Assembly (NCBI GenBank): GCA_951406725.2
Contig: OX597831.1
Location: 496,001-560,000 of the forward strand
Length of the DNA: 64,000 nt
Reading direction: 5' to 3'
From: Octopus vulgaris
Lineage: Eukaryota
The position numbers were made by a program, and so were the translations under genes. The stretch's first letter is position 1; the number at the start of each line of letters is the position of its first letter. Below the pieces are notes generated by a model. It did no database searches and was not told where the DNA came from. It saw only the letters and a program-made list of their open reading frames with translations. Of this stretch, positions 31,800 through 63,749 are shown one piece after another.

Positions 31800-32212
31800 T
31801 TTCTTTATTGCCCACAAGAGGCTAAACATAGAGGGGACAAACAGGAACAGACAAAGGGATTAAGTCAATTACATTGACCCCAGTGCGTAACTGGTACTTA
31901 ATTTATCGACCCCAAAAGGATGAAAGGCAAAGTCGACCTCGGCGGAATTTGAACTCAGAATGTAGCGGTAAACGAAATACCTATTTCTTTATTACCCACA
32001 AGGGGCTAAACATAGAGGGGACAAACAAGGACAGACATAGGTATTAAGTCGATTACATCGACCCCAGTGCGTAACTTGTACTTAATTTATCGACTCCAAA
32101 AGGATGAAAGGCAAAGTCGACCTCGGCGGAATTTGAACTCAGAACGCAACGGCAGACGAAATACCGCTAAGCATTTCGCCCAGCACACTAACGTTTCCTC
32201 CAGCTTGCTACC
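31800..32212 (-). mobile_element. Two nested/tandem SINE B copies
   Basis: 31800-31981 and 31982-32212 both read tttctttatt.cccacaag.ggctaaacatagaggggacaaac..aggatgaaaggcaaagtcgacctcggcggaatttgaactcagaa. Confidence 0.92.
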
Positions 32213-32745
32213 TTTTAGGCAAATATATATAGAAAGGCCCAGTTCCAGCGTATACGTTCTCGTCTGGATCCCTTGTTATCTCATTCACAATGTTTAGCAT
32301 CAACATCATCATCAGGCTCCTTTCATCTTTGGTAGTTTGATCTTTCTTCACCTACCTTTCATCCTTCAAGTGTATCCCATGTCCCTATTAGTGCAGTCTT
32401 GTCTCTTGTACACAATGGATGATTTCTGGAATGTCTATTTTCTCTCTTTGTTCACTCATGCTCCACTGTTCCATGCAATCTTTTATTCTATTATTTGTTT
32501 CAGTCATTTGACTGTGGCCATGCCCCAGGACTTATTCTTTCTAAACCTAGTACTTATTCTCTCATTTTCTTGTTGCTGAACCACTAAGTTACAGGGATGT
32601 AAACACACCAACATTGGTTGTCAGACAATGGTGGTGGGACAAACACAGATACATACACACACAAATACATACTTTTTTTTTTTTTTCCTCTAGTTTCAGC
32701 TCAGAGCTGTGGCCATGCTGATGCACCGCCGTAAATTTGTTTAAT

Positions 32746-32819
32746 CGTCCTTGGGTTGGCTTGAACCACCAACCGTTCGGTTAACATCTGAACATGCTAA
32801 CCGATTGCGCCACAGAGAC
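32746..32819 (-). pseudogene. tRNA-Asn(GTT) pseudogene / retrocopy
   Basis: Minus strand gtctctgtggcgcaatcggttagcatgttcagatGTTaaccgaacggttggtggttcaagccaacccaaggacg is the conserved metazoan tRNA-Asn with substitutions that break D, anticodon and T stem pairs. Confidence 0.88.
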
Positions 32820-35493
32820 TCCTCGCATATATGAGATGGGTTTCTTTCAGTTTCCATGTACCAAATCCGAGGATATAGTAAAACAATACTTGTCTGAGGT
32901 GCCACACAGTGGGACTGAACCTGGAACCATTTGTTTGGGAAGCAAGCTTCTTACCACACAGCCATGCATGCTGACATTACATTAACAGTGTATATATATA
33001 TTTGCCTAATTTCTTAGTGTTTATATTTCACTACCATGCAACCATCTCACTCTGTAATCAAGCATTATATGGTCTGCCCCTTAACACGAAGAGAGAAAAA
33101 CTTCACTCACAAAGTGAAACAACAGTTCACTAAATGCTTTCTACCCTGTCCTAATTCTAGTTACTATGTCATAGCACCTACTTTTAAACTGCTAAATAGG
33201 TCATATAGGTAACAGGTGTCATCTATCAGAGCCTCCTGGGCAGTCGAAAGATTGTGTTCCATGAGTGCTCTTAAAACTAAGTACTCCTGCTCATCTGCTA
33301 CATATGTAGTAGTCCTTCTTTTCGGGTTGTCTGTCTGAAATTTAATAGTACTTCTGCCCCTTTAACACATTGCATGCACAATATAGAGTTCCTAATCAGT
33401 TGTTGTTTTGTTTACAAGCTGAGCACAGAGTTCTATAATTACTCTTACTAAAATTTTTGACTTCATTAGATTGATTTTTTTACCTCCTCAACCCTGGAAC
33501 TTTTCCTCTAATTCATTGAGTGATATGGTTATGAGAAGTAGTTCAGCAATATGTAGGAGCATCCACTGACAATAGGCCTTAAATTCTGCTATTATGGTCT
33601 GATAAACCATAATAAGCAAAAGTGGGAGAAGTTTGAGAACTGAGGTCTCATAGACACCTATCTGCATGCTAAATTTTTTTAATGAACTATTTTGTTAACT
33701 TTCTTTTTGCTGATCAGTATTTCTGTTGATAGCTTGCATGACTCTCACAAACCATTCATCTACTCCCAGTTTTCTTAGTGACTACCAAATTACAGGGTGT
33801 GTTAGCCTACCAACAGTTTTCTCCAGGTCAACAGATATTAACTTTTGGATGAGAATTTCTTCTGTATCTGTCTCATGAAAAATAAGGCACTAGTAGATCC
33901 TTGCATCTCAAGCTAATTCATCAGTTTGATAGCCCATGTAACGAAAGTAATGGACAAAGTTATATTGTAACTGTCCCATAAGTTTCATACACTTCCTTTG
34001 CAATGTCGCTATGTTTGCCAGTCATTGGAGATAACACAACCTCGCACTATTTGTTTGACTATGCAAGTGACCAGCATGTACCTTACTTCACTAGATATTT
34101 TCAATATTCCAGTGATTACCCTTGATAATCTTGCTGCTTTCCCAGTTTGGAGTATATAACTTTTACTAAAAGAAAGCAATTATTTAAAGTCTACACAGTC
34201 TCAAAAATTCTTATAAATTCCAATTTTAATGTTTTTATCAAAATGTGGTTTTCAAAATTCTTTTATGACTGAAGATTTCATCTCCACAATTCATTCACAA
34301 AAACTAACCTTTATTCACTGCAAGATGGTGTTTTTTTGCACCACCATCCATGATAGGGAATCAAAATGGAGTGCTGTCAGAGTGAAATGAAAATATACAG
34401 ACACATTTGGGTTTAGACATGGGACATAAAAGTTAACAATACACATAATTAGGGTTTTTATTTATTTGTTTGAAGCTGATGATTTAGTGGGTGACTAACA
34501 CAAATTTCTTTGCTTGTGAGCAAGTCATTTGTTCCTGGGACAAAGAACTGAAGAATGCCTGCATCAAATTTGAACAGGTATATATATATATATACATTCA
34601 AACCTTTGGTTTAATGTATGTTGTTTTTCCATGCAAGTATGAAATATATTTAATGAATAAATTAATGAGGCATTGTTTTACAGCCAGATGCCCATCATTA
34701 TTTGTTTTTGAAGTAAGGGTTCCGTTATTTAATATTTTTTGAACATGTAAAGTCAGTGGATAACTTGTTCATAAGTGACAACATTTCTTATACTTCGGGT
34801 CTTTTGTAACCTACAAATGTAAACACACAAATATACATATATAGCTGCACATATCCTTATAATGCACAAGCATGGTGGGAAGGTTAAAAAGTTTTATTCC
34901 TAAACACATGACTTCAAGTTCAGTCTCACTGCATGGCATCACGAGCAAGTGTCTTCTTCTATAGCCCTGGGTTGACCAAAGCCTTATGAGAGGACTCAGT
35001 ACACAGAATCTAAAAGAAGGCCATTGTATATGTCTGCTTGTGTTTCCTTGTTTTGAGATTGTGCAAGCAGTGTCCTTTGTTTCCAGTCTTCCAAGAAAAC
35101 ATGTCCGGCCATGGAGAAATATAAGTTTGCTTGGAAACGAGTGAGGATTGGTGAGAGGAAGGGCATTTGTCCATAAAAAAATGTTTGAATGAATTTTGTC
35201 TTACCTGTACTAGCACAGAAAAGTGGGCATTAAAATGACAATACACACACACCATATATAATTAACTAAGTGAGTGAAATTTGATGCTGAAAGAAGATCT
35301 ATATGTAACAAATAATCATTTGTCATACAGCATGTCTCAGAAGGAAGTATAGTTGATCTATCATATTTTAGAGTACTCTAATACATATTTTATCAACCCC
35401 AGAAGAAAGGATGGACAGAGCAAATGTAATCTGTATAGTATTTGAAATTACTGAGGGAGAGAGCTGTGGAAGTAAATATTGTATAAGACATGT

Positions 35494-36099
35494 TTAATAC
35501 TTTAGTATTCAGATCATTCTGTCAAATGTAATGCTTTTCATTCACATTGGTTTTAATTAATCATGCATTACAGGCGCAGGCAAGGCTGTGTGGTAAGTAG
35601 CTTGTTTACCAACCACATGGTTCCGGGTTCGGTCCCACTGCGTGGCACCTTGGGCAAGTGTCTTCTACTATAACCTTGGGCCGACCAAAGCCTTGTGAGT
35701 GGATTTGGTAGACGGAAACTGAAAGAAGCCCGTCGTATATATGTATATATATATGTGTGCGTGTATGTTTGTGTTTGTCCCCCTAGCATTGCTTGACAAC
35801 TGATGCTGGTGTGTTTATGTCCCCGTCACTTAGCGGTTCGGCAAAAGAGACCGATAGAATAAGTACTGGGCTTACAAAGAATAAGTCCCGGGATCGAGTT
35901 GCTCGATTAAAGGCGGTGCTCCAGCATGGCCGCAGTCAAATGACTGAAACAAGTAAAAGAGTAAAAGAGTAAAGAGTATTACTCTGTAGCTTGGAAATTA
36001 TGATGATGTAGTTGTATATTTTATAATAGCACCAAAGGGCTGATGTGATAAGCTGGATCTGACAGGCTATGATGGCTGGTTTAAATGCTACAGCATTAA
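35494..36099. mobile_element. Degenerate TTAA-flanked MITE split by a SINE A
   Basis: ttaa-tactttagtattc ... aaatgctacagca-ttaa ends (weak TIR); SINE A inserted at about 35572. Confidence 0.45.
35572..35977 (+). mobile_element. SINE family A, young full-length copy
   Basis: Consensus match with (AAAGAGT)n tail; possible short TSD attac. Confidence 0.95.
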
Positions 36100-36379
36100 G
36101 TCCCATGATGTGCTAGTGTTTGTTTAGATGCCGTATTTGCTGTTTCGTATAAAACACAAAAGAAAACAATATAAAAACAACTTTAAATTTTATTTCAAAA
36201 TAAGAAATGCATATGTGTGTGTAAAGTCAAGAAGCTTGCTTTTGCAACCATGTGGTTTCAGGTTTAGTCCCACAACACGGCACCTGGGACAAGTATCTTC
36301 CACTATCGCTGCAGGCTGATCAATGCCTTATGAATGAATTTGGTAGATAGAGACTGTGTGAAATGTTATCGTGTATGTA

Positions 36380-36410
<31 letters not shown>

Positions 36411-36449
36411 GATTGATTGATTGATTCTAGTTTCAGCTCATGAGCTGTG

Positions 36450-36480
<31 letters not shown>

Positions 36481-36878
36481 TCTTTTCTTTTCTTTTACTT
36501 GTTTCAGTCATTTGACTGCGGCCATGCTGGAGCACCATCTTTAGTCGAGCAAATCAACCCCGGGACTTATTCTTTGTAAGCCCAGTACTTATTCTATCGG
36601 TCTCTTTTGCCGAACCGCTAAGTGACGGGGAAGTAAACACACCAGCATCGGTTGTCAAGCAATGCTAGTGGGACAAACACAGACATACACATATATATAT
36701 ATATATACATATATACGACAGGCTTCTTTCAGTTTCCGTCTACCAAATCCACTCACAAGGCATTGGTCGGCCCGGGGCTATAGCAGAAGACACTTGCCCA
36801 AGATGCCACCCAGTGGGACTGAACCCGGAACTATGTGGTTGGTTAGCAAGCTACTTACCACACAGCCACTCCTGCACC
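36481..36878 (-). mobile_element. SINE family A, young full-length copy
   Basis: Consensus match, inverted relative to 35572-35977. Confidence 0.95.
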
Positions 36879-36899
36879 TATATATATATATATATATAT

Positions 36900-37062
36900 A
36901 ATGGGAAGCTTTATGAAAATAAACAAAAGACGAAGGCAGGTGGAGTACAAACAAACAATTGTAATAGTATGGCGCTCAGGAATATAAATAAAAGAAGTCT
37001 TTTACGTTTCGAGCCTACGCTCTTCAACAGAAAGATACACAGAAAAGAAACACGGAGAGAAT
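36900..37062 (-). mobile_element. Penelope-like terminal repeat fragment with a minimal hammerhead motif (36998-37035)
   Basis: Minus strand tcttt-CTGTTGA-a-gagc(gtag)gctc-GAAA-cg-TA-aaaga; flanked by (TA)n; homologous to 61130-61260. Confidence 0.6.
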
Positions 37063-37379
37063 ATATATATACATATCGCGGAGTGGTTGGCGTTAGGAAG
37101 GGCATCCAGCTGTAGAAACACTGCCAGATCAGACTGGAGCCTGGTGCAGCCTCCCGGCTTCCCAGACCCCGGTCGAACCATCCGACCCGTGCTAGCACGG
37201 AAAACGGTCGTTAAACGATGATGATGATGATGATATATCACCACCATCATCATCAACGTTTTTTTCCATGCTGGCAAGGGTTGAGTGGTTTCACCAGAAC
37301 TGCACCAGGCATGGCATAGTTTCCATGGCTGGAGCCCTTGTTAGCACCAACATGCCACAAAGTGCTTTTTATGTGGCAC

Positions 37380-37530
37380 CAGCACTGGTATCAATTCTGC
37401 TGTGGTGGATGGCTCTTCTTGAGTACAACAAGGCACCAGATATCTCGGTCCTTTGTTACCCCCTTCGTAGGGCTCCATGGCATGTCTTCCAGGGTCTCCC
37501 TCTTCCACAAGTTCCATTCACTTTAAGTGA
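37380..37530 (-). mobile_element. RTE-like LINE C-terminal remnant (similar piece at about 56380-56540)
   Basis: Minus strand encodes KVNGTCGRGRPWKTC, resembling RTE G.RGRGRP.KTW. Confidence 0.55.
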
Positions 37531-37770
37531 TTGGCACACATACACACGTGTGTGTGTGTGTGGTGGTCCACCTCACCACTTGGTAACCAGTATTGGTTAG
37601 TGTACCTACCTGCAGGTTAGCAGTTTGGTAAAAGAGGCTACCAAGATAAGTGCTAGACTTGAAAAAGAAGATTCTGGGGTCAATTTGTTCAACTAAACTT
37701 TCCATGGCAGTACTCCAGCATGCCTGGTAGTCCAATGACTAACACAAGTTATGTATGTGTTGCTATACAT

Positions 37771-37801
<31 letters not shown>

Positions 37802-38419
37802 AAATATAAATAATATATAAATATATGCATATATACATACCTATATGTACATGTATATATACATGCATATATGGGTACAGGACATCAAAAAAATGTAGAC
37901 AAAATTATATATACACATATTTTATATCTATACCTATCTACTTCTCTCTGTAAATATGCGATCATGCTCTCTCAATGAATGTAGTATTTATTTATATTTA
38001 ATAAAATTCAGCTGCAGGTAGATAAGTAATGGGGTTTTTATTCTAGTCTTTCTAAGGTACAAATAATAAAGCAAAAAATTTACACACATCTCTTTGTTTA
38101 AACACTGAAACGAAAAACATGGACGTAAAGAGAAAAGAAGCGAAGCTGGTTGACGGTTTTAAAGGGGAAAAAAACGTCGATTTAATATAAATAAAATTAA
38201 ATAAACAGAAATCGTCTGCTAAGAAGGATTAAATATGGCGCGACCGCCAGAGCAGAAGTTGAAGGTGAAGGACAAAAAAGGAGCACGGGAAGGAAATGGA
38301 AGAGAGAAAACAAGAGAGAGACAATTGAAAGTTGAGGCGGCTTCTACCTTCGCTTCGACTAATAATAAACAAAACTGTATTTACTACAACTACTACTGCA
38401 CTATTCATTATTTTCATAA

Positions 38420-38880
38420 AGGCGTCGAAGAAGTAGAATCCTTAGCACGCCGGGCGAAGTGCTTAGCAGCATTTCGTTTGTCGTTACGTTCTGAGTTCGA
38501 ATTCAGCCGAGGTCGACTTTGCCCTTCATCCTTTCGAAATCGATAAAATAAGTACCTATTTCTTTATTACCCACGAGGGGCTAAACACAGAGGGGACAAA
38601 CAAGGACAGACATAGGTATTAAGTCGATTACATCGACCCCAGAAGTACCAGTTGAGCACGAGGGTCGATGTAATCGACTTAGCTCCTCTCCCGAAATTGC
38701 ACGCCTTGTACCAAAATTTGAAACTTTATCATTATTATTATTATTATTACGAGCCATTGTACATTCCGAGTTCAAATCCCGCCGAAGTCCAACTTTGCCT
38801 TTCATCCATCCGGGGTCAGTATAATAAAGTACGAATCAAGCACTGAGGTCGAAGGTCAATGTAATCGACTAAACTCTCCC
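38420..38880. mobile_element. Cluster of SINE B-related copies; truncated young SINE B (38557-38642, -) inserted in an older one
   Basis: TSD aagtacc at 38550-38556 and 38643-38649. Confidence 0.8.
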
Positions 38881-41183
38881 ATATACTTAAAACTGGCGGC
38901 CCTGTAACCTGAATCAGAAATTAGAAAGCATTTTTACCATGAGCCTTCAAAGGAGCCGCTCGAGGTCGTAGAAATAGTAGCAAAATCCCTTCAAATAATT
39001 ACAGTAATATATATATATGGTCGTGGATAGAGTGTCTTATCATAGGTCAAATCTGTTTTTTTTTTAAAGCAACGATCGCAACTACCATTCAATGACTTGT
39101 GCTGTATTATTTATTAGTCATGTATACAAATAATATATTTTATCGATCTCTCCACCTGTCTGTGTATCAATTTATTTGTCTGTTTAAAATCGTCGGCCGG
39201 TCTCTCTGTCTCTATAACCATTCATCTGCATAGACTAATCTATATTAGTTGGTCTATCTATCTATCCACACACACACACACATATCAACTCCACTAATTT
39301 ATAAATGTATATTTCAACACCATTTTACCTATTATAAACTACTTCTAGTCACGCCGCTAATAGTAAAAGTAGAAGGAGGGAGAGAGAGGACAACAGAATT
39401 AAACCCCCCCCCACACACACACACGCACCATCATATCATGATCGTCATCTTTAACACCAACCGTTGGTCCACGACTATGTGTAACAAATATAAATTTACC
39501 ATGTAATTTTTAGAGCTTTTGATGTTGATACACGGCGAGAGAAGAAAGACATCGCGTGGAAATAAATTATGAAAGATCTTAAAAAAGAAAAGAGAGAGAG
39601 AGGGGGAGAGAGAGAAGGGGGGGCGGGCGGGCGAAAGTGAAAGTAGGAAATAAAAAACCCTTAAAAACTCGGCTTATTTGCAAACACACACATATACACA
39701 CATGCATCTACATATACAAACATGCATAATCACAGTATTGAGAATATTTGCACGAGGGTGTAGTTTTTTTGTTCAGCACTGATCGAGTGTGACCACCTCA
39801 TCGTCATTTTCTTTCTTTTTGTTTTTTTACGTATCAGGGAGTGCATCAATCTTTAACGGCCATTTAGCTGCTATTTCTAATACCCCGTCGTTCTGTATCT
39901 ACCATGGACTTATATATTAATCGAACGCGCTTTGAAGGAGATTTGGCCCCAATCTCAAATACTCCGTCGTTTTGTATCTACCAGGGACTATATATTAATC
40001 CAAAGCAGTTTAAAGATGTTGCTACTGTTTCTAGCATGTCTATCGACCATACAGAGGTGCCTTCATCAGAATACAGCACGTAGTGAGGTATGTATTATTA
40101 ACACGACACAAAGTGGCTAGCACTTCTGATTCTAATTAAGATTTAATTAATCAAGTCTATACCTGTATGAAGGTGAACAGGGTTAAGCAATAAGCTCAGT
40201 ATGTGCTCTTTCCTGTCTTTAAAACGGTATAAAAGTGTTGTTTTGGTGGAGATCAGGCTGCCATGTCTTGTAGAAAGAAGAGGAACGAACCTTCGTTGGC
40301 TCGATGGAGGGGGGGGGGGGGAGAAGAAACTGAATAAATAGGCAGAAACCCTTATGCACGTTGTGTAACAAACATCATTAACGGAGTGGAAATTTTGTTA
40401 AATACACAGTAAAATCTACAACTTCATTGGATGTCTTGAAAAACTTTAGAATGAGGACTATCATTAAAAGTTTTTTTTTTGTCATCCAACGTTATATATA
40501 TATATATATGTATGTATGTATGGCATATACAGTCATTATCCATCATATTATATTCATCTTGTGTGTACTTGTGTGTGTGAGTAGTGATGATGAATACTTC
40601 AAGGTGGTGGGTAAGTTTCGTTTTTCATTGTTGGCTACGTATGAGTTTAAATGATTCAAAATGGCAATGTCTGTGTGTTTTGTGTTTGTGGTAACTAAGA
40701 TATATCCATAACAATCACCACTCACGCAACCAGGGCATGAAACACATGCAATGTCTGTCTTTCCCCGTGTCAGTTCGCGTGTGTGTGTATGAATGCTAAT
40801 TAGAATACAAAGACAAGCAGCAGAATCAGACGAAACAGATAGGCAAGACAAACAAACAAACCCCCACCAAAAAAAAGCACAACGATAAATAAATACAAAG
40901 GTTTATCTTCTAATATATTTCACACTCACATTTATAGGATGCTTCAGGTGAATATATGATAGGGTGAGGATTAGACAAGATACATGACATTGATGGATGG
41001 ACAAAGAAATAGACACGCAGAGAGTGACCGTTGTATGTAAACACATCATTTGTCGACATGACTCCTCCGTGAATAATAAACATTCTGCAATTTATTGACA
41101 GCTTTATGTACGTTTGGATGGATAAACGTGGGAAAAATGCATTCGATAAACGTAGTGTAGAGTATAGTTATTCGTTCGAAGCT

Positions 41184-41348
41184 GGAGTGGCTGTGTGGTA
41201 AGTAGCTTGCTAACCAACCACATGGTTCCGGGTTCAGTCCCACTGCGTGGCATCTTGGGCAAGTGTCTTCTGCTATAGCCCCGGGCCGACCAATGCCTTG
41301 TGAGTGGATTTGGTAGACGGAAACTGAAAGAAGCCCGTCGTATATATG

Positions 41349-41385
<37 letters not shown>

Positions 41386-41580
41386 CTGTGTTTGTCCCCC
41401 TAGCATTGCTTGACAACCGATGCTGGTGTGTTTACGTCCCCGTCACTTAGCGGTTCGGCAAAAGAGACCGATAGAATAAGTACTGGGCTTACAAAGAATA
41501 AGTCCCGGGGTTGATTTGCTCGACTAAAATGGCGGTGCTCCAGCATGGCTACAGTCAAATGACTGAAACGAGTAAAAGAG
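41184..41580 (+). mobile_element. SINE family A, young copy
   Basis: Consensus match. Confidence 0.95.
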
Positions 41581-42139
41581 ATTCATTGTGATCGCGGCGG
41601 ACAAAATGCTTAGTGGTTTTTCTTCCAGGTCTAAACGATCAAAGTTCAAATTCCGTGGATGTCGACCTTTATACCCTTCATCTTCCCGGGGGTCGATAAA
41701 ATAAGTAAGTGCCAGTTGAACACCGTGACTAATGTAACCGATTAAGCTCTCCCCTCCCTGTAAAATAATTAATATAAATAGAATAAAGAAAATGTTGGCC
41801 ATGCGCCAAAATTTGAAACCGTTATTATCATTATTTTGTTTGCTATGTGCAATCCTGCAAATGACATAAAATGGTAGAGCTTACTATGTTGAGGTCATGC
41901 ACACGGGTAATTAATGATATGCACGATTCATTAGTGAGTGAAGTGGTTCCAGACGAGAATCGAAACCGCTGATTGCATGTGCACGCCATCTTACCGCCAT
42001 TAGCAAATAATAATAATAGCAAAACGAGAGATGAAGATAATAGAGTTGATAGGTTACACATGCACACAGACCAAAGCCCGAGAAATTTATAAGAGTTTTT
42101 TTGTGTCCATTAACATTCTGTAATCCATAAACCAACGAG

Positions 42140-44330: not shown

Positions 44331-44814
44331 AACCTCTTGTATCAAATTCTCTCGTCACATAAGCTGCTGCTCCTGCTACTGGAGTTGGCATGGCGCTGAA
44401 AAACAGTACCCACAATAACACTTACTCGCTCTCTCTACGAGACATCTCTTCCTCTCCCTCTTTAGCTGTTGTTGCTGCTATGGTTGCAGAGAAACAACAC
44501 ATTCTTTTCTCGTTTCACTCACTCACTCAATCTTGCTCTTATTTCTTTATTCTTTTCATTTGTAACTTCATTCTTTCTTTTCAGAGAGCATTTTGTTTCT
44601 ATGTTTACCATGACGTCTCTCTTCCCATCGCTGCGTACGTCGTGTGTTCGTGTTTATTCCTCTGTATTCCTTTACGTCTGCCTGTTTTTTTTTTCCTAAC
44701 CAAAACAACCACACGCATCAGCTGTCACATTTTCGTGTTTTTCAGAATAAGTATTCCTTCCTACTTAAAACTTCCACACCGCCTCCCTTAATGAAGACTG
44801 TCTCTTTATTTACC

Positions 44815-44961
44815 TATTTCTTTATTACCCACAAGGGGCTAAACACAGAGGGGACAAACAAGGACAGACATAGGTATTAAGACGATTACATCGACCCCAG
44901 TGCGTAACTGGTACTTAATTTATCGACCCCGAAAGGATGAAAAGCAAAGTCAACCTCGGCG
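44815..44961 (-). mobile_element. 5'-truncated young SINE B with a 13-bp TSD
   Basis: ctctttatttacc at 44802-44814 and 44962-44974. Confidence 0.92.
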
Positions 44962-45187
44962 CTCTTTATTTACCATCAACTTCTCGGTACAACCCCGTCC
45001 TAACCCTTTATCTTATTCACTTTACCGCCTCCTATCTATGAAACTATGTCCTCTTCCCCTCCTATATATATATATACACACACATATATATATATATATG
45101 ATCTAAGTTATATGATGTATAAAAAATGTAATATACAAATAAATATCTGTAAATATAAACCATCCGATTTTCTGAGCACCTCATTTC

Positions 45188-45242
<55 letters not shown>

Positions 45243-51447: not shown

Positions 51448-54400
51448 GCAGTGGTTGTTGCCATTTGACTGACGCCAGCCCCATTTCACTCAGATTGACA
51501 ACGCTCCAGTCGTGGCCATCCCATTTTACAGTACAGACAGTAGTATATCTGGGATTGCATTTTCCAAGTGTCTTTCCAATTTTGTTTTGAAGATGGTTTG
51601 GGTATGAATTTAAAGATTTGCTCTGCTATTTCGATCGGATGGAACGACCACGTTGGTTTCTTGTCGAAGGGGGGAGAGAGAGAGAGAAAGAAAGAGAAGG
51701 GGAGGAAGAGGGAAAGTGGGGAGAGAGAAGAATAGCTTAAAGAGGATTAAGGGGAGAGGGCGAGAGAGATAAGAGGGGGGATTAAGAATGTGAGGATAAG
51801 TAAGAGGTTTGTTCTATGCATGGCAAGTAAGATATTTACCCCCCCACATCAAACCTGATAAAAGTCGGTCTGTATGTAACTATCCTGTCTTTTTTTCTCC
51901 TTCAGACATATCTTGAATTACATTGAATTTGTCCATCAGGCTGCTATTTCTAATAACTGGAATAACAACAATAAGAAGCGCTGCAGTGTGGTTTAGGCAT
52001 TATTTTATTTCCTTCTTAAAATAAGGTGTAAGGGTGTGATTTGAAGGAGATTTAGCCGCTATTTCTGGTATGCCGTGCGGACCATGCCAGCAGATCTCGT
52101 CTTCGACCTGGTGTTGAAGTTTTTGAATAACAAATCCCCCCCCCCCATCCCAGAAAACCCTCGTTGGGCCACCCGCCCATCACGATACCAAAAGACGAAA
52201 AAAATATTCGGAAATATTTTTACTCACAGTGCAAAAAGCAACAGAGCAATAACCGAGATTTAAGTAAGTATTAATGATAGGTTAGCGAAGAAAAGGAAGG
52301 AGAGATCTCTATTATCAGCCCGGTAAAACCCGCTAGAAAATGCAGCCAAATCGCACATTATTGTTTTACAAAGTAAGACGGCGGCGGCGTGCATGGTATT
52401 GCTTTTAGATAAGGTCTGATGATGGATCAGGGCTGACCTGGGACGAAGTACCAACAATAATAAGTCAGGCAGAAGCAAGAAGAATGAAACGAGAGTTCAT
52501 TTAAGGTAACCATTACCAATCTAGTGTCTATTTTTTTTTCTTTCTCTTACTCTGAAAACGTGACTCCTAACGAAGGGCGTGTATAAGTTTGGATGTGGCT
52601 TTGTTATTTTTTTTTTTTAATATGAAAATGGTCAATATATAATGAATGTAGCAACTAAGCGTGTAGAATCCGATATTTTTGCGCGCGCGAGTATAAATTA
52701 GGAGAAAAAGTACCACAATGAAATAATAAATAAATCGCTTTTCCATACATACAGGCCCATGTGTGTGTATGTATGTATAAATATATATATGTATGTATGT
52801 ACATGCATACAGATATATCAATGAGAGAGTGAGATAAAGAAAGGTAGTAAGAGGAATATGAGGGGGGTTGTAGTGGTGAGAGAAAGACAGGAATGACAGA
52901 GAGAGAGTGGTAAGAGGAAGACAGAGAAAGTATAGGTAGGAAAGAGAAAAGTGAAGATATTTACAATAGAAAGGGAGAGGAAGAGATAGAAAAAGCGCCA
53001 AAAGAGGAGGAATTACAGTTGCAGTGAGAGGAGGAAGGGGGGAAACGATAATAATGTAGTAGTACGGAGTAGCGGCTACTATATAGAAAAAGAAACGCAG
53101 TAAGTAATGAGAGAGGGAGTACAAAGAAAAAATTAGACGGAACTAATGTAGAAGGATGAGTAGAAAGGTAGAGAAAAGAAAAGCAATAAAATAAGGAGAG
53201 GGAGGAGGTGGAAATTAGTTACAACAGAGAGAAGAAGAAAATGATAAAGAATTAGTTAAACGAGAGTAGAAGGGAGAGGATCGCAAAAAAAAAAAAAGAG
53301 AAGAAAGACAGTAAAGGAGAAGTGAGAAAGTGTGCAAGACATTTTCAATAGAGAAAAAGGAAATCGAGGAAGGGGAGGAAAGAGAGGAAGATGGTGTAAG
53401 AGAAACAAAATGAGGGGAAAAGGGTAAGCGAGTAAGTGTATAATGAGAGGGTGTGGTGTGTGTTAAAAAAGAAAAAGAGAGTGAGAAAGAAGAGGTAGAA
53501 AAGGGAGACAAGAGAGGAAGAAGGACAAAGAAAACATTATTACTATTATTGGTAGTAATAGTAGTAGTAGTAGTATCAATTAAATCAACTGTGCTCGTTT
53601 TAGAAATGTTTAAAAATCATTCTTAGTCTTATTAGCGGATGTGGACGTCACCGAAGACTGGTTTTTAAGGATTCAGTTTACTGCCACGTTATGGCTTATA
53701 GCATTATAAATGCTGTAAACAAATCATGTGTGCATGTTTAGCAAGAAATTGCAAAAACCGTCATGTCGTCAACAAGATTATTTTAGCATCCAAAAGCATG
53801 CCTTCCTTCGACTTCCCATTCGAGCTACCCAGGTTAAATGGAGAGGTTTCGAAAGCTTCAACCAGCTAAGTTGGAATTTGTTAAAACAAAATTATTAGAT
53901 AGATAGACAGAGAGTGAGAGAGAGAGAGAAAGGGGGAGATGAAAGGAGGAGGTAAAGACAGAACAGAAAAGTGTATATCAAGCTTCTCCAGTTACTTGCA
54001 GGCGTGTCTATCAATCTATATGTCGTTACTAGGCGAGAACAGGAGGAGTTAAGCAAGAATTTACTGCGTCTGCGGTTTTCGGGTGGCAAAGGGTTCGGGG
54101 ACATATTGTCTGGCATGTGGTAGGTCAAATAAGGTCAGAGAGAGACAGACAGGCAGAGGAATAGAAATTTGTCTAGACAGATTTGGCACGTGTACACTTT
54201 ACATTTCACTTCGCAATCTACCTTACTCGCACACGACATATTATGTAGATAAATATGTATTACAGTAAAATAGAAGTGGGCTGGGGGACAACATGAGTGC
54301 AAGAAAAGATTTTGAGTGTGACTGTGATATGGCGCTGCCTTAAAGGGTTTAGTCGAACAAATCGACCCCAGTACTTATACTTCAAGACCCGGTATATTTC

Positions 54401-54641
54401 AACGTCACCTTAGAGGATGTAGTGAGACTGGTACAGGACCACAAGCGATGGAGAGCTCTGGTGGACCTGGTCGGCTCTATGCATGATGACCCCCATCAAG
54501 AAAGAAACACTTATTCTGTTGGTCGCTATTGCTGAACCGTTAAGTTACGGGAACGTAAATAAACCAACACCGGTTTTCAAGCAGTGGTAGTGGACAAATG
54601 TATATACAAAATCACACATACGTGTATCTATCTATTTATCT

Positions 54642-54933
54642 AGAGTTACTTGCAAATAAATGTGTCAACATGTGACATTATTGACCGAGGTTACCGTGGT
54701 CTTTTCCGTAGGCTTTTCTTTCCACGAATAAACCTTATCTGCTTCCCTCTTTACACTTTACACCATGACATTTCTGTGATACACGATCCCTATTGATCGT
54801 TTTTTTTTCTTTCCTTTTTACGATCCCTTTTGATCGAAAACCTACCTCAAATTTTCCTTTCTCCCCAAAAAGAAAAGCTCTACTTTGTAATTTGTCCCGT
54901 CTGTGTTCAGCCCTGTGTGACTAATAAAGAAAC
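54642..54933 (+). mobile_element. LINE-like 3' UTR fragment (possibly L1/Tx1) inserted in the (TATC)n centre of a SINE A
   Basis: Ends ttgtcccgtctgtgttcagccctgtgtgactaataaagaaa, homologous to the SINE B tail; host SINE A (-) spans about 54330-55100. Confidence 0.6.
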
Positions 54934-55214
54934 ATCTATCTATACGACAGGCTTCTTTCAATTTCTACTAAATGCACTCACAAATGATTTGGTTGGGTCA
55001 AGGCTATAGTAGAGGACACTTGTTCGAGGCACTATGCAATGGGAATGAATCTGGAATCATGTGGTTGGGAAGCAGACTTCTTACCACACAGCCATGCCTG
55101 TCATGTTTATTGGAGTTGAAGGGCAATTGCTGCTGTGTTAATGATGCTTATTCAGATAGAAACATGCACCCTCGTCTTCATAGAAAAATAAAACAGACTG
55201 TTTTTTCTCTAATG

Positions 55215-55752
55215 CAGGAGTCACCAAACATTTTGCCACGGTGGGACAGATAACTGAGAGAATGGTGAGCGGTGGGCCACAGAACCGTTTTGTTCAATAC
55301 AACAGTGGATACACAAAATATAAAGACAACCAACATTTATTTACCAAAAAGTTATCAAAGAAGGTGACGTTAGCAATAAGATAGTTGTATCACTCCCAGT
55401 GCACACATATCTGAATCTCACAAACTAAGCAGCAAAAAGGGTTAGTGAGATTTGTGAAACTGGTGTTTGGCTTTTAAGATATAAATTTTTGCTTTGGAAT
55501 TGCTGCATCCAACCAAGAGAAATTGTTTTCAAATGTTTGTCAGTCCACCTCATTTGATGTGCTGACTTCACATACTTCATTTTTGAGAATGTTTGCTCAC
55601 AGACATAAGTTGTTCCAAACATTGGTGCCATACCAAAGGCAAATGAACTCTCATTGCAGGTACTTACACAAAAGGTACAGTGCAGCGGTGGGGTGGATGA
55701 AGTGACCTCGTGGGCCAGATCTTGTCCATGGGCCTTAGTTTGGTGATCCCTG
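55215..55752 (-). mobile_element. Non-autonomous hAT (Charlie/Buster/SPIN-like) deletion derivative
   Basis: TIRs caggagtcaccaaac / gtttggtgatccctg; 8-bp TSD ctctaatg (55207-55214) vs ctccaatg (55753-55760); minus strand MFGTTYVCEQTFSKMKYVKS..R.TDKHL is a hAT C-terminal dimerisation motif. Confidence 0.92.
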
Positions 55753-57012
55753 CTCCAATGGCATGCCATTTATGGAGGTCTTAATTCCTGAGATTATTTC
55801 CTTTCCTTATTCAGTGATGGTTGGCATTTGCCACTAAGTTTACCTTCTCTAGAACCAAAGAATATGTTAACAAATCAGGATATTATCTTGTATGGTATTT
55901 AATATACCTTCTTATGTGTTTTTTATATAAATTCACGTCACTTGTCATTGCTCTTAGGCCACTGTTTATATGCATGTGTGTGTGAAAATGTAAAGAATGC
56001 AAAACACAACAGCCATACCCTCTGTCAGCTCTTAGTTGCCATTTTTGTTCCTGTCAGTGTCGTACAAGGATTGGCTTTCTCAGTTACCAAACAGAGGAAC
56101 TACTCAATCAGGACGAAATTGAAATACTTGAATCATCATTCATCACTTAATGTCTGCTTTCCATTCTGGTATGGGTCGGACAGCTTGACAGGAACTGACA
56201 AGGAAGGCTAGGGGCCACACCAAGTTTCATAGTTTGTTTTCGCTTGGTTACTATGACTGATTGTCCTGACTAATGCTAACCATTCCACAGAGTGTACTGG
56301 GTACTTTTTATGTGGCACCATCACCAGTGCTTTTTATGTGACACTAGCACCCACACCGATGCTTTTTATGTGACACTTAGGTTTTAGGATCTCAATTCTG
56401 TTGTGGTGGGCAAGTGTTCTTCAGTACAACAATGTACCATAGATCTCGGTCCTCTGTCATCTTCATAAGGTTTGGCATTTTCAGATTAGCCTTCAATACT
56501 TTGTCCCATGTCTCCCTCTTCCACAACTTCCTTCCACTTTAAATGAAAAATACTTTTATTGTAGTATTATATGTTTTTTTTTTTTGAAACCCTATTCTTC
56601 CTTTACAACTTTTGTTTATCAATTTGGAAATTTGAATAGATTTCTTTACCTCTTTTCAGACAAATGGTGATGGAGTGCCAAGTTGAGAAAATGAATTTAT
56701 CTGGCAACCCAATATGATTGCATGTGGGCATGTGTCCACTTTTTCATGTCCACATGGGTTGGATGGAATTTGCTGGGGTAGATTTTCTCTGGCCAGGTGC
56801 CTTTCCTGTTGCCAACCCTCATTTGTTCATACGATAATTACACTTGGTTACAACTCTTACATAATATCAAGACAAAGAGGCACTAACACATACACACTCA
56901 CATTTATGTACAATGGGCTTCTTTCAGTTTCCGTCTACCAAATCTATGCATGAGGCTTTAGCTGGTCCAGGATTATAGTAGAAAACACTAGCTCAAGATG
57001 CCACACAATACC

Positions 57013-57244
57013 TATTTCTTTATTACCCACAAGGGGCTAAACACAGAGGGGACAAACAAGGACAGACATAGGTATTAAGTCGATTACATCGACCCCAGTG
57101 CGTAACTGGTACTTAATTTATCGACCCCCGAAAGGATGAAAGGCAAAGTCGACCTCGGCGGAATTTGAACTCAGAACGTAACGACAGACGAAATACCGCT
57201 AAGCATTTCGCCCGGCGTGCTGACGTTTCTGCCAGCTCGCCACC
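57013..57244 (-). mobile_element. Young full-length SINE B with a 17-bp TSD
   Basis: agatgccacacaatacc at 56996-57012 and 57245-57261. Confidence 0.95.
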
Positions 57245-57542
57245 AGATGCCACACAATACCACTCAACCCAAAACCATGTGGCTGCGAAACAAACTTCTT
57301 AACGACACAAACACATCAGTATGTGTGTATGTATGTTTATATCTATCTATCTATCTAGTTATCTATATAGGCACAGGTATGGCTGTGTTGTAGGAAGCTT
57401 GCTTCCCAACTACATGGTTCCAGGTTCAGTCCCACTGTTTGACACTTAGAGAAGTGTCTTCTACTATAAACTTGGGAGTAGATTTAGTAGATGGAAACTG
57501 AAAGAAGACCATCATATATATCATGATCACCATCATTTAATA

Positions 57543-57922
57543 CTCTTTTACTCTCTTTTACTTGTTTCAGTCATTTGACTGCGGCCATGCTGGAGCACCG
57601 CCTTTAATCGAGGAACTCGACCCCGGGATTTATTCTTTGTAAGCCCAATACTTATTCTATCGGTCTCTTTTTGCCGAACCGCTAAGTAACGGGGACATAA
57701 ACACACCAGCATCGGTTGTCAAGCAATGCTAGGGGACAAACACACACACGCATATATATATATACATATATACGACGGGCTTCATTCAGTTTCCGTCTAC
57801 CAAATCCACTCACAAGGCTTTGGTCGGCCCGAGGCTATGGTAGAAGACACTTGCCCAAGGTGCCACGCAGTGGGACTGAACCCGGAACCATGTGGGTGAT
57901 AGACAAGCTACTTGCCACACAG
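57543..57922 (-). mobile_element. SINE family A, young copy
   Basis: Consensus match; interrupts a family C-like element. Confidence 0.93.
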
Positions 57923-58286
57923 TCTGTTTTCCATGCTGGCATGGGTTGGACGGTTTGATAGGAGCTGGCCAACTGAAGGGCTGTTGAGGCTCCATGTCTG
58001 TTTTGGTATGGTTCCTATGGCTGGATGCCCTTCCTAACACCAATCACCTTACAGAGTGTACTGGGTGCTTTTATGCAGCATCAGCAGGCATGCTTTTTAT
58101 GCGGCACCAGCAGCCACAAGTTGGCAAGATTTGGATCACTCAGCTGAAGAAGGCTGCAAACATACTGTCTGAGCAGATGACTTAATCCATGATTCAGATG
58201 ACTGTAGTGATATGCGAATGAGCAAAAGCTGTTCATTGAATTTTCAGAAGTAGATGTATGCTGCTTTCTTTCTGTTTCTCTCTTAG

Positions 58287-58329
58287 AACAAATGAAGAAA
58301 TTCACTGCTGATGAGTTGGTAAAAACAGG
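58287..58329 (+). other. Candidate small internal exon
   Basis: Strong polypyrimidine acceptor ctttctttctgtttctctcttag| followed by an open frame (QMKKFTADELVKT) and cag|gtgaaa. Confidence 0.25.
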
Positions 58330-58809
58330 TGAAACTATGAGTAGTTTTTCACCGTTTTATAGAGAGAGAGAGAGAGTTCAAATAAGACACAAGATATATT
58401 TACGCAGCAAATTTAAATATATGTTTATCAAATGCATGCATGTGTGTATATCTTTTAAATTTTGATTGGTTTCAGCCATACTGCAACCATACCGAGGTAT
58501 CACTTTGAAGGGATGTAATTGAATGAATCAACCCCTAAGTGCTTATTTTTAAAGAACTTATTGTGTTGGTCTTTATTGGCTGAACCGCTAAATTATTGGG
58601 GCATAAACAAACCGACACTGGTTGTTAAGCCATGATGCAAGTAGTGCTCAAGTATTTTAACTGTTAAGATACACAATATTGGCAAGGTCCTATCAAGGGA
58701 CGTTTCTGAGGTTTGCAGTTGATGGAATCATGAAGGTTTGATGCTGAGTGTGACAGTAAGTAGATCATTGATGTATAGCAGAAACGAGAGTGCAGGATAA
58801 AACCAAACC

Positions 58810-59203
58810 TTTTCTCTTTCTCTTTCTCATGTTTCAGCCATTTGACTGCACCACGCTGGAGCACCGCCTTTAGTCGAGCAAATCGACCCCGGGACTTATT
58901 CTTTGTAAGCCCAGTACTTATTCTATCGGTCTCTTTTGCCGAACCGCTAAGTCACGGGGACGTAAACACACCATCTTCGGTTGTCAAGCAATGCTAGGGG
59001 GACAAACACAGACATACACACACACACACATATATATATATATACATATATACGACAGGCTTCTTTCAGTTTCCATCTACCAAATCCACTCACAAGGCAT
59101 TGGTCGGCCCGGGGCTATAGCAGAAGACACTTGCCCAAGATGCCACACAATGGGACTGAACCCGGAACCATGTGGTTGGTTAGCACTCTACTTACCACAC
59201 AGC
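58810..59203 (-). mobile_element. SINE family A, young copy
   Basis: Consensus match. Confidence 0.93.
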
Positions 59204-59384
59204 GCGCATTTTCTGAGATGAATCAGTGTTGGACAGAAACAGCTCAATCAACATGTGTTGTAATAGTGAGATCTAATAGAAAGCTATCTATTTCAGAGAT
59301 GTGAGATGGACAGAGCCTGTGGGCAGGAAGACTTGCATGCGAGTTACAGTCAAAGGCTTTGTTTATGACCAGGTAACAACATTG

Positions 59385-59656
59385 CTTTCACCAAACTGAG
59401 AGTTGCTGAAGCATGGAACAAACTGCTGGCATCGGTTGTTAGCTGTCGGAGCACTGCATCCTTCAAAACTTCCATGCTTCCTGAGATTCGCCAACACTAC
59501 ACTTGATTTTCTCCCCTCCATACACACACAAGCATGTATCTGACTCATACATTGTTCGCTTTCCAGACATTTCTCCATTACTGCATGTAATTTATATGCA
59601 CTTTCTGACAAGTTGTGGTGCACCTGAGCACTGTATACGATAATTTCATTATTATT
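59385..59656 (+). mobile_element. CR1-clade LINE 3' end
   Basis: RVAEAWNKLLASVVSCRSTASFKTSM resembles the CR1 ORF2 C-terminus (RVV..WN.LP..VV.A.S..SFK), followed by a 3' UTR and (ATT)n tail. Confidence 0.8.
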
Positions 59657-60319
59657 TATTAAACTTTTCGAAAGCAAGAGACATTTACACATAAATATAT
59701 AAATACCTGGGATAAGTTATGCTTAATAGGATTTGAAATGTTTGGTCTATTAATCTCACCTTTGGAGATGAGTCATTTTAAAAAATATTTACATCAACAA
59801 TTTTACAACTAGTTCGATTTATAATATTAACAGAATATATCAATCTCAAAAGATTGCATGTGTGTTTGAGTGCATATATTTTACATGTTCATCTGCTTTG
59901 AGTCAGTTTCTTCATATCAGCATGGGTTAGGCAAAGATGTTATTAAAGGACTATTTTACAGCCTGATGCCCTTCTTAGCACTAAACCTTGATTGTTTTTC
60001 CAAGTAAGGGACCTCTTAATTCAAAAAACTTCAACGGTAGGAAGCGAGTGGGCAGTTTATTGACAGGAGAACCCTGCAGGAACAAGATGAGTGTCATGAA
60101 AGCCAATGCAGATGTAGATACACACACACACACACACACAAATGATGGGCTTCTTTTTCAGTTTATGTCAACCAAAGCCACACAAGACTTTGGTTTGCTT
60201 TGGACTACAACACAAGACACATGTGCAAGGTGCAACGCAGTGAGACTTAACCTGAAGCCCCATGGTTCAGAAGCAAACTTCTTAATGACACAGCAATGCC
60301 TGTGTGTGTGTGTGTGTGT

Positions 60320-60618
60320 GGAGGCGCAATGGCCCAGTAGTTAAGGCAGCGGACTCGCGGTCGGAGGATCGTGGTTTCGATTCCCAGACCGGGCGTTGTG
60401 AGTGTTTATTGAGTGAAAACACCTAAAACTCCACGAAGGTCCAGCAGGGGGGCGGTGGCGATCCCTGCTGTACTCTTTTGCCACAACTTTCACTCATTCT
60501 TATGTTGGCCTGCTTGCTTAGCCAGCGAGGTGGCGTCATTTGAAGGCTAAAACAATGCGAAGCATATTGTGACCAGCGATGTGTAACAACATCTGATAGC
60601 CTGGTCGGTCATGGTGAT
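60320..60618 (+). mobile_element. SINE family D (tRNA-Arg-like head), tail type 2
   Basis: Head as 28840 (ggactcgcggtc); tail gaaggctaaaacaatgcgaagcatattgtgaccagcgatgtgtaac also present at about 24795-24900. Confidence 0.85.
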
Positions 60619-60865
60619 ATATATATATATATCTTAATATCTTTTACTTGTTTCAGTCATTAGACTGCAGCCATGTTGAGGCACTGTCTTGGAGAAATTT
60701 TAGTTAAATGAATCAACCCCAATACTTTATTTTTTATGCTTTTAAGCCTGGTACTTATTCTATCAATCTCTGATGATGAACTGCTAAGTTACAGGGACAT
60801 AAATACACCAACACTAGTTGTCAAGCAGTGGTGGGACACAAACACATACAAAGACATACTCATAA

Positions 60866-60870
<5 letters not shown>

Positions 60871-60940
<70 letters not shown>
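60871..60940. repeat. (TA)n(TG)n microsatellite, one of dozens in the window
   Basis: Direct observation. Confidence 0.97.
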
Positions 60941-60941
<1 letters not shown>

Positions 60942-60947
60942 ATATGT

Positions 60948-61262
60948 AAAAACACAAACTGGGACAAGAACACAAAACATTTAGAAGACGATACAAAAAA
61001 CACGGACGGGACATTCGAAGCCTTCAATCTTCAGTCAAGAACCGGATCATCCTCGCTATTTCGGCTGATTAATCTTAAACATGAAAACACAGAGAAAACA
61101 CAACAACGCGAGGACGTGGAACAAGTATAGTGTTATTGGACGCTCAGGAAGGAAAGAAAGAAGGCGGATTTAACATTTCAAGCGGTGCTCTTTATCAGAA
61201 ACATAGGGAAAGGAAAGATCCAAGGAAGGGAAGATGGAGGAAAAGAAATCGCCAACGATACA
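60948..61262 (-). mobile_element. Penelope-like terminal repeat fragments with a decayed hammerhead motif (61168-61202)
   Basis: Minus strand gttt-CTGATAA-a-gagc(acc)gctt-GAAA-tg-TT-aaat; shares cgctcagga flank with the 36.9 kb copy. Confidence 0.55.
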
Positions 61263-61670
61263 CACACGATATATATATATATATCATCATCATCGTTTAA
61301 CATCCATTCCCATGCTAGCATGGGTTGGACGGTTCGACCGGGGATCTGGGAAGCCAGAAGGCTGCACCAGGCTCCAGTCTAATCTGGCAGTGTTTCTACA
61401 GCTGGATGCCCTTCCTAACGGCAACCACTCCGTGAGTGTAGTGGGTGCTTTTTACGTGCCACCTGCATGTAATACATATATTGCACGTATATATATATAT
61501 ATATACATACAATGGGCTTCTTTCAGTTTCTGTCAGCCAGATTCACTCACAAGGCTTTGGTTAGCTTGAGGCTGTAGAAGACACTCACTCAAGGTGGCAT
61601 ACAGTGTGACTGAAACTGGAACCATGTAGTTGGAAAGCAAGCTTCTTACCACACACCCATGCCTGCGACT

Positions 61671-61738
<68 letters not shown>

Positions 61739-62548
61739 TGTCCATTTCGTTTGATGCTAATGTGTGTTAATTCATATTAGCATAGTTTAAGCAATAGGTA
61801 ATTGAGGCAGAGATTTTTACAACCAGATGCTCTTCCTGTTGACAATCCTTACCTAGTTTTCAAATAAAGAAATTTTTTTTTTAATTCCAGAGAAATCTGA
61901 AAGTACAGAACTAGCAGATGATTTGTTGGTACAGGAAATATCAGCAAATGTCACAGGTTGCAGCCTAGCCACAAATGGCAACATCATCATTTGTAGTCAG
62001 AGTTCACCATAAAACACACACACACAGACAGATATAATATGATGGGTTTCTATCAGATTTTGTCTACCAAAATGTCTCACAGGCATCAGTTGGTTTGGTG
62101 GTATTGTAGAACATGATTTCCCAAGATGCCACATAGTAGGATTGAACCCAAAATCACATGATTGAGAAGGGAACTTCTTGATCACAGAGCCATGCCTGCA
62201 CCTACAATATATATATATATCTTTTATCTGTTTCAGTCATTAGACTTCTGCCATGCTGGGGCACCACTTTGATTGAGGAACTTTTGGGTGATTGAAATGA
62301 CCCCAGAAAAAAATTTTTAAGCCTGATATTTATTCTACTGGTCTCTTTTTGCTGAACCACTAAGTTACTGGGATATAAACAAACAGTGTTGAAAGGCAAA
62401 CACAGACACAAAAACACGTGTATATGACAAGTACTTCTTTCAGTTTCTGTCTACCAAATCCAGTCACAAAGCTTTGGTCAACCTGAGGTATCGTGCAGTG
62501 AGACTGAACCTGGAACCATGTGGTTGGGAAACAAGCTTCTTAGCCATG

Positions 62549-62584
<36 letters not shown>

Positions 62585-62658
62585 CCATCATCATCATCAT
62601 CATTGTTTAACATCCATTTTCCATACTGCCATGGGTTGGATGGTTTGACTGGGGAATC

Positions 62659-62890
62659 AAGGCGGCGAGCTGGCAGAATGGTTAGCACGCTGGGCGAAAT
62701 GCTTAGTGGTATTTCGTCTGCGTTACGTTGTGAGTTCAAATTCCGCCGAGGTCGACTTTGCCTTTCATCCTTTCGGGGTCGATAAATTAAGTACCAGTTA
62801 CGCACTGGGGTCGATGTAATCGACTTAATACCTATGTCTGTCCTTGTTTGTCCCCTCTGTGTTTAGCCCCTTGTGGGTAATAAAGAAATA
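62659..62890 (+). mobile_element. Young full-length SINE B with a 17-bp TSD
   Basis: ggtttgactggggaatc at 62642-62658 and 62891-62907. Confidence 0.95.
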
Positions 62891-63749
62891 GGTTTGACTG
62901 GGGAATCGGTTAGCCAGTAGGCTGCGCTGGGCTCCAGTCTCATCTGGCAAGGTTTCTACAGCTGGATGCCCTTCCTAACGCCAACCACTCCAAGAGTGTA
63001 GAGGGTGTTTTTTACGTGCCACTGGTACAGGAGCCAGTTGAGACTGACATCAACCACGTTTGGGTGGTGCTTTTTACATGCCACTGGCATGGGTAGCCAG
63101 TCAGGCAGCACTGGCATCGCCCCACACTTGAATGGTACCTATTATGTGCCACTGGTATGGGTGCCAGTCAGGCGGCACTGGCAACGGCCACATCTACAAT
63201 TTCCATTTTGATTCCAGTTTTGATTTGCTTATGACTTTTGATTTTACTTGACTCAATAGGTCTTCTCAAGCACAACATATATATACACACACACACACAC
63301 ATCTTTTACTTGTCACAACATATATATCATTTACACCGTCTTGAAAGGTTTTAGTTGAACAAATCAACCCCAGGACTCGTGGTTTTAAAACCTAGTACTT
63401 ATTCTATTGACCTCTTTTGCTGAACCACTAATTTATGGGGATGTAAACACACCAACACCAGTTGTCAAGCAGTGGTGTGGGACAAATGCAGAAACACAGA
63501 TATATACATATATATATAAACAACAGGCTTCTTTCAGTTTCCATCTACCAAATCCACTCACAAGGCTTTGGTTGGCCCTAGGCCACATGATTGGAACACA
63601 AGATGTATAATGGAATTGCAGGCAGCCTGACAGATAATGAAAATTTCATACATAGCAGATGAGCAGGAATAGTTAGAAATAAGAACAATAACAAAATGGG
63701 TTTTTTTTTCAAAAAAAATACAGAAGTCACCATGGGTGACCTATATAAT

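Follow-up and report, generated by a model that had tools for sequence, protein, structure and literature searches.

We identified in a 64-kb window of the Octopus vulgaris genome (G000:C18:496001-560000, the whole stretch analysed here, within a 2.80-Gb genome) a short interspersed nuclear element (SINE) that targets GGTAT(T) genome-wide, a motif that is present at the target before insertion. The tail of the SINE has homologues at the 3' ends of many long interspersed nuclear elements (LINEs), a large group that we label Tx1-type and of which two families, LINE-S and LINE-B, recur below. The commonest landing site, used by half of the young copies, lies between positions 49 and 50 (49|50) of older copies of the SINE itself, and insertion is probably guided by two layers of targeting, a LINE endonuclease and the pairing of the SINE RNA with its target.

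Exact matches to the last 26 nt of the SINE number 18,102 genome-wide, and GGT comes next in 13,967 of them (77%). Positions 50-59 of the SINE (GGTATTTCGT) directly follow 5,158 of these ends, and GGTA plus A, C or G follows 1,877; once the ends with an exact self 10-mer are removed, GGT follows 8,809 of 12,944 (68%). Among 30 young copies chosen by BLAST irrespective of their flank (one is the window's own copy), GGT follows 25. Fetched loci, much of the sample being from the first 18 Mb of contig C1, supplied 330 intact ends; 38 had been chosen on their flank and were set aside for counts. In this sample GGT follows 137 of 165 ends of the young subfamily (Y) and 68 of 127 ends of the older one (O). 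The Y ends outside SINE sequence (n = 71) have a profile at +1 to +7 of G83 G90 T92 A83 T76 T45 T38%, followed by background, and the profile after young non-self copies equals SINE positions 50-56 (GGTATTT). The 5' copy of the target duplication, which represents the pre-insertion site, matched at +1 to +6 in 42, 44, 49, 46, 28 and 25 of 53 young non-self sites, a set that includes flank-selected copies, and in 26, 30, 34, 30, 29 and 16 of 38 unbiased sites. An earlier note on this DNA had proposed a target-site preference and named a lack of GGT enrichment in the 5' duplicate as what would refute it; GGT is abundant there, and its GGT core stands, but the note had missed the longer GGTAT(T) and its identity with internal SINE sequence. 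Of 176 terminal ends, 94 have a flanking duplication; its commonest length is 16 nt, and false pairs arise at a rate of 6 of 2000. At +8 to +16 of the non-self sites there was no signature of long pairing (98 observed, 111 expected).

The copies in the window illustrate the pattern. Their features, in window coordinates, are as follows.

62659..62890, forward strand: young (Y) SINE copy, full length (232 nt), the coordinate reference for positions 1-232
62642..62658, forward strand: 5' copy of the 17-nt target duplication of the reference copy, beginning with GGT and with a T just before it
62891..62907, forward strand: 3' copy of the same 17-nt duplication
62671..62681, forward strand: A-box-like motif, positions 13-23 (match to a loose pattern of the consensus), with a minor landing site at position 17 inside it
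62708..62717, forward strand: positions 50-59 (GGTATTTCGT), with the main landing site 49|50 for the SINE and LINE-S
62734..62744, forward strand: B-box-like motif, positions 76-86 (match to a loose pattern)
62828..62890, forward strand: LINE-derived tail, positions 170-232, with a predicted terminal stem-loop common to Tx1-type LINEs
57013..57244, reverse strand: young SINE copy, near full length, inside an old copy of the window's other abundant SINE
57245..57261 (5' copy) and 56996-57012 (3' copy), reverse strand: 17-nt duplication of the preceding copy
44815..44961, reverse strand: 5'-truncated SINE copy, from position 86
44962..44974 (5' copy) and 44802-44814 (3' copy), reverse strand: 13-nt duplication of the preceding copy
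38557..38642, reverse strand: SINE copy with a 5' truncation (from position 147), lying antisense within an older sister SINE (38419-38681, forward strand)
38643-38649 and 38550-38556: 7-nt duplication of the preceding copy
31982..32214, reverse strand: first unit of a SINE dimer, an old head and a younger body, followed by SINE position 50
31799..31981, reverse strand: second dimer unit, positions 50-231, likely the host copy, with no GGT after its end
30586..30803, forward strand: older copy, 83% identical, with a variant tail followed by (AT)n and not GGT, an internal control
54891..54932, forward strand: 3' end that belongs to a further Tx1-type LINE family, whose tail is homologous

The earlier note had placed GGT directly 3' of five copies on the element strand, and both the coordinates and the GGT hold for all five. 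It had also placed the GGT within the duplicated flank; this is so in four copies, whose flank duplications (17, 17, 13 and 7 nt) are exact, start with GGT and are preceded by T (4 of 4), but not in the fifth. That copy has no flank duplication: it is part of a 416-nt dimer (32214-31982 and 31981-31799), and its apparent 5' copy (32156-32165) is the SINE's own positions 50-59, a dimer structure that bears out the note's suspicion of SINE-in-SINE homology. Given a GGT frequency of 0.0118 in the window, four independent hits have p of about 2e-8, in agreement with the claim that chance is an unlikely source. GGT is absent after the two window copies with older tails, 30586-30803 and the second unit ending at 31799. 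Elsewhere in the window, ARAGORN called a tRNA-Asn at 32746-32819, near copies of the other abundant SINE; it is probably a SINE head.

[quoted passage not shown] Loose patterns matched a clear B box (positions 76-86) and a degenerate A box (13-23), and the main landing site sits between the two. The head gave no Rfam match up to E = 10 and no tRNA call by ARAGORN; nor did Rfam return a match for a head derived from U1 or U2 small nuclear RNA (snRNA), as in SINEU proper. Target-primed reverse transcription (TPRT) of L1 and Alu yields duplications of about 16 nt and 5' truncation, starts from a nick at a pyrimidine/purine step and relies on pairing of the RNA end with the primer. The octopus SINE is alike in its duplications and 5' truncation, and probably in the nick and the pairing, but lacks a poly(A) tail and a TT/AAAA target, and its putative pairing word is of mixed sequence; a difference from L1 targeting had been stated in the earlier note. 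In four public runs that are presumably RNA, contigs cover the SINE, although contigs cannot display RNA ends. Sister SINEs (L116, L045, L003 and others) have the same positions 1-167 and other tails, and their duplications seem to start with TAT or ATAT.

Self-insertion, which the earlier note had treated as a side case, is the largest class: 84 of 165 Y ends are joined to position 50 of a further SINE copy. Of 96 first junctions, 60 had an upstream unit from a younger class, 35 had two units of one class and 1 had an upstream unit from an older class; the upstream unit was less diverged in 62 and more diverged in 22. Rare alleles common to both sides of the junction peak at positions 56-70, as predicted by target duplication, and at five loci (L019, L021, L070, L076, L230) a new head comes right after the position-50 duplication. 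The young-before-old order, the shared alleles and the new heads together establish that head-to-tail arrays grow by sequential insertion at 49|50, with a mostly seamless 5' join. Template jumping was considered as the main source of the arrays and excluded by the age order of the units. The inner units of some long arrays are nearly identical, with a difference of 0-1 nt in 17 of 135 adjacent pairs, and DNA-level expansion probably adds to these arrays. The tail-to-position-50 junction also appears as loose ends in contigs of independent runs. Of the 68 insertions at GGTATTT, 61 used self sites, whereas such sites make up about 35% of GGTATTT sites in unselected DNA (43/124, 9/23 and 4/15). 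Age-ordered arrays of this kind confound consensus libraries and copy counts for the commonest repeats of the genome. One sister SINE forms an array with a unit that begins at position 124, and at L093, L097 and L098 the last six bases of the SINE are doubled before position 50 (5 ends), as from slippage at the start of reverse transcription.

The SINE tail (positions 170-232) shares homology with 3' ends in a large LINE group whose ORF1 carries a zinc knuckle and whose ORF2 carries APE, RT and zf-RVT domains. Domain order, the non-poly(A) tail and a C-terminal likeness, rather than a tree, suggest the label Tx1-type for this group. A terminal 4-bp stem is kept in 43 of 44 cells across 11 tails, with one pair changed on both sides and with differing loops; folding z-scores for the predicted structure of the SINE tail were not significant. 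The last 26 nt of the SINE match LINE-B tails at 24-25 of 26 positions and LINE-S tails at 21 of 26. LINE-B has all of the domains above (the ORF1 zinc knuckle and ORF2 APE, RT and zf-RVT), and GGT follows 1 of its 37 ends. Its junctions are heterogeneous yet fall into classes that recur, and in some of these (L182, L184) there is an additional base that the target lacks; 8 of the 37 copies belong to an AGAA class, two of them at SINE position 17. At L182, L184, L194 and L196 the extra LINE-B base, a C missing from the target, matches the flank of nested LINE-B copies.

LINE-S was located through one 5' junction, in which a SINE head stops near position 65 and a piece of ORF2 follows (L332). 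The ORF2 of LINE-S is represented by this piece, which is 66% identical to LINE-B residues 820-1003. Of 40 scored relatives, 20 3' ends were fetched: the tail is present in 19, and the twentieth stretch starts within a SINE body. Each of the 19 readable ends leads into position 50 of the SINE body; two of them carry small deletions and one has just 24 nt of SINE. The Tx1-clade partner suggested in the earlier note agrees with these data, since the SINE shares its tail with Tx1-type LINEs and LINE-S occupies its main site. In the 3' regions of 93 of 150 zf-RVT hits, an incomplete sample of families, none ran into SINE position 50, and in the loci examined before the recovery of LINE-S a LINE tail preceded none of 527 position-50 body starts. 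Two candidate partners were rejected: the L112 family (the first tail homologue, 30 loci), which ends at (ATT)n/(ATC)n and not GGT, and the L171 family, which has the 5' half of the tail in common but not the target.

Bases upstream of the nick are not random. Pyrimidine occupies -1 in 39 of 53 Y sites (background 48%, p = 1.4e-4), the 12 nt upstream have 3.72 matches to the SINE site against 3.16 at background GGTA sites (p = 0.006), and a bias is also seen at -7; O sites display the -1 trend alone. RNA cannot pair upstream of the nick, so this bias points to a weak preference of the protein. A sequence-specific endonuclease of LINE-S, or of a sibling, could set GGTAT by itself, with the RNA overwriting a base or two at most. 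The position of LINE-S at 49|50 in 19 of 19 ends and the upstream bias at -1, -7 and across 12 nt agree with this explanation, as do the AGAA class common to LINE-B and to SINE copies with the tail variant C220 (T-to-C at 220) and the lesser sharing of the Tx1-Mar target by SINEU-1 and SINEU-2 (23 and 13%) than by SINEU-3 (90%), as given in PMC4494074. We nonetheless find it doubtful as a full account. The upstream information is weak (0.56 extra matches of 12) next to +1 to +4, which are 79-92% fixed, and about half of the young SINE copies lie at short-match sites where LINE-S was never seen. Moreover, with a single enzyme the base after the LINE (C) should not differ from that after the SINE (G) at the same site, barring another LINE that prefers G.

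The last point belongs to the evidence for the RNA. After the same-site junction the first base is C in 19 of 19 LINE-S ends and G in 129 of 136 SINE-in-SINE junctions. Where duplicates in unique DNA differ at +1 to +3, the 3' copy reads GGT in 7 clean events versus 1 reverse (p = 0.035), a count that leaves out a misaligned row, an indel, four rows of low complexity and one GGTA-selected row; five further events have T in the 3' duplicate and C in the 5' duplicate, with zero in reverse. Among 90 self junctions, a base other than G stands at +1 solely on the left in 14 and solely on the right in 1, and three self junctions with linked rare alleles (L107, L108, L273) lean toward GGT on the 3' side as well. 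Tail sublineages also differ in target: C220 copies are followed by AGA, which matches SINE position 17, in 10 of 34 cases versus 4 of 258 (p = 9e-8), and a G at 222 leans to TA targets (13 of 46 versus 7 of 89, p = 0.004). Four LINE-B copies whose endonuclease DNA is 98-99% identical have four different junctions. Finally, four consecutive T are absent from the SINE; transcription by Pol III would therefore continue into the flank, which in a nested source is GGTATTT.

Pairing alone, with a non-specific LINE-B enzyme carrying the SINE and the overlap with LINE-S sites arising as both RNAs read through into the same SINE sequence, is improbable in our judgment. The identity of the tail, greatest with LINE-B, suits it, and so do the heterogeneous LINE-B junctions (1 of 37 with GGT) with their recurring classes and extra bases absent from the target. 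It conflicts with the non-random upstream bases, which resemble the SINE site, and with the overuse of self sites (61 of 68 versus near 35%), though longer pairing could also cause the latter. A reading of the GGT as artefactual, with GGT fixed in the SINE end and the arrays produced by template jumping, unequal crossing-over or misassembly, is largely refuted and very improbable: near-identical inner units would fit it, but GGT sits in the 5' duplicate in unique DNA, arrays are ordered young before old, new heads follow the position-50 duplication and the junction is present in contigs of independent runs.

The two-layer reading, an endonuclease with RNA pairing, must itself be weighed against several observations. 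The asymmetry of mismatches toward GGT on the 3' side is modest: two of the seven events have CpG at +1, and three sub-threshold short duplications split 1 toward and 2 against, which brings the count to 8 versus 3 (p about 0.11, hand calculation). A choice of C-allele targets could account for the C that follows LINE-S, as the C allele occurs in 20 of 123 SINE heads and in the sole LINE-S 5' junction seen (L332). At self junctions, the left head may derive from the new copy. An AGAA-preferring enzyme would also explain the AGAA class common to C220 SINE and LINE-B copies. TATTT, a potential leaky stop, occurs at position 52 of the first unit too. Lastly, the SINE tail is nearer to LINE-B than to LINE-S, so LINE-S is only a candidate for the true carrier of the SINE. 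The earlier note had posed a sequence-specific endonuclease and obligatory RNA pairing as an either/or; each has evidence in its favor, but as alternatives they are probably not exclusive.

We envisage the two layers working together as follows. A LINE endonuclease, likely that of LINE-S or a sibling, would nick GGTAT(T)-like sites loosely, at a pyrimidine/purine step in a context like that of the SINE head, as the upstream bases partly show. A Tx1-type protein may bind the terminal stem-loop of the tail. The SINE RNA would run beyond its tail into GGUAUU, pair with the nicked strand and start reverse transcription there. Pol III read-through from nested sources, in which head, body and tail are followed by position 50 again, could supply the GGUAUU. 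TATTT stopped 42% of B2 transcripts in mammalian cells (PMC8466645), and by extrapolation to octopus a leaky stop at TATTT could keep the extension short, which would explain SINE target matches of 5-6 nt versus the whole-site match of LINE-S. A short extension would permit 5-6 nt matches anywhere, and a long one would favor SINE copies. Nesting at 49|50 would keep both the A box and the B box; with the promoter and the same extension retained, each nesting could make a new source, a positive feedback. As a tentative extension of this model, target choice is possibly a heritable trait written in RNA: the flank of the source would guide its progeny (GGTAT, AGAA or TAT lineages from one set of Tx1 enzymes), nesting between the promoter boxes would fix the guide, and a passenger SINE would program the landing pad on which its carrier LINE specialises.

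The nearest known system is SINEU/Tx1-Mar of crocodilians, with Tx1 LINEs that target repeats, a SINE with the same target and sequential tandem insertion (Kojima 2015, PMC4494074). As described there, a SINE and a target-specific Tx1 LINE likewise use one target inside a repeat, with the SINE looser or equal, and tandem copies likewise come from sequential insertion. The target there is a Mariner transposon, whereas here it is the SINE's own head; SINEU heads are snRNA-derived; and half of the young octopus copies use a 5-6 nt match in unique DNA, with a first junction base that depends on the element. Tx1L in Tx1D, Keno, Kibi and Koshi are also Tx1 elements aimed at a repeat or microsatellite, but none of those listed in the summary of PMC4494074 targets a SINE with a Tx1 tail. 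In the silkworm, AGG/GGUU annealing is described for SART1Bm and a requirement for downstream target sequence for R1Bm (PMC7265360). There, too, annealing of a short target-like RNA sequence to the nicked strand has been proposed to fix where reverse transcription begins. Those elements, however, are autonomous LINEs with fixed host targets (telomere, rDNA), and in the account of that paper pairing refines a site chosen by the protein, whereas in the octopus SINE pairing may choose the sites and shift from one sublineage to another. Squamate SINE-derived satellites (PMC10702118) are similarly tandem arrays of part of a SINE; they are ascribed there mainly to unequal recombination, whereas those of the octopus SINE are products of insertion, ordered by age. 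In 2026, an annotation of octopus repeats reported 13 recently active L1-Tx1 families, with no target analysis in its main text (PMC13282606). The literature searched, with subscription journals and Repbase outside the search, held no report of a SINE targeted by itself and its LINE. This analysis contributes counts across the genome, a class of short-motif sites in unique DNA, the ordering of arrays by age and a junction base specific to the element. Target choice in non-LTR elements is usually credited to the endonuclease (PMC4494074); tens of thousands of insertions, in which sublineages distinguished by one tail base land at different motifs, provide a natural experiment on the contribution of the RNA end, and on how strict specificity (LINE-S) can evolve from loose specificity (LINE-B).

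Several further observations concern the Tx1-type LINEs. Several sister families (L122-L150, L213, L214, L069, L085) have their 3' ends at microsatellites, namely (ATT)n/(ATC)n, (CT)n and (ATCT)n, and resemble Kibi and Koshi in this. A third Tx1-type family (L381-L410, e.g. G000:C2:55202588) has GGATGT after its 3' end (27, 26, 26, 24, 26 and 20 of 30 at +1 to +6), and three of its copies lie at one recurring nested target. Head-to-tail LINE arrays with a 5.4-kb period occur at G000:C2:73046133-73067990, and at L175, L209, L210 and L212 the ends of a family recur before one fixed sequence; the arrays and the recurring flank suggest LINE-in-LINE nesting. A 144-bp tandem array contains a piece of LINE tail (L401, L402; G000:C21:42753714-42757475). 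At L433 (G000:C18:49051000-49052599), a Tx1-type 3' end is followed by sequence that we take to resemble the 5' end of U1 snRNA. A broken ORF among (AAT)n repeats (L112:2184-3649) had no significant Pfam hit and may carry a restriction-like endonuclease motif of the R4/Dong type.

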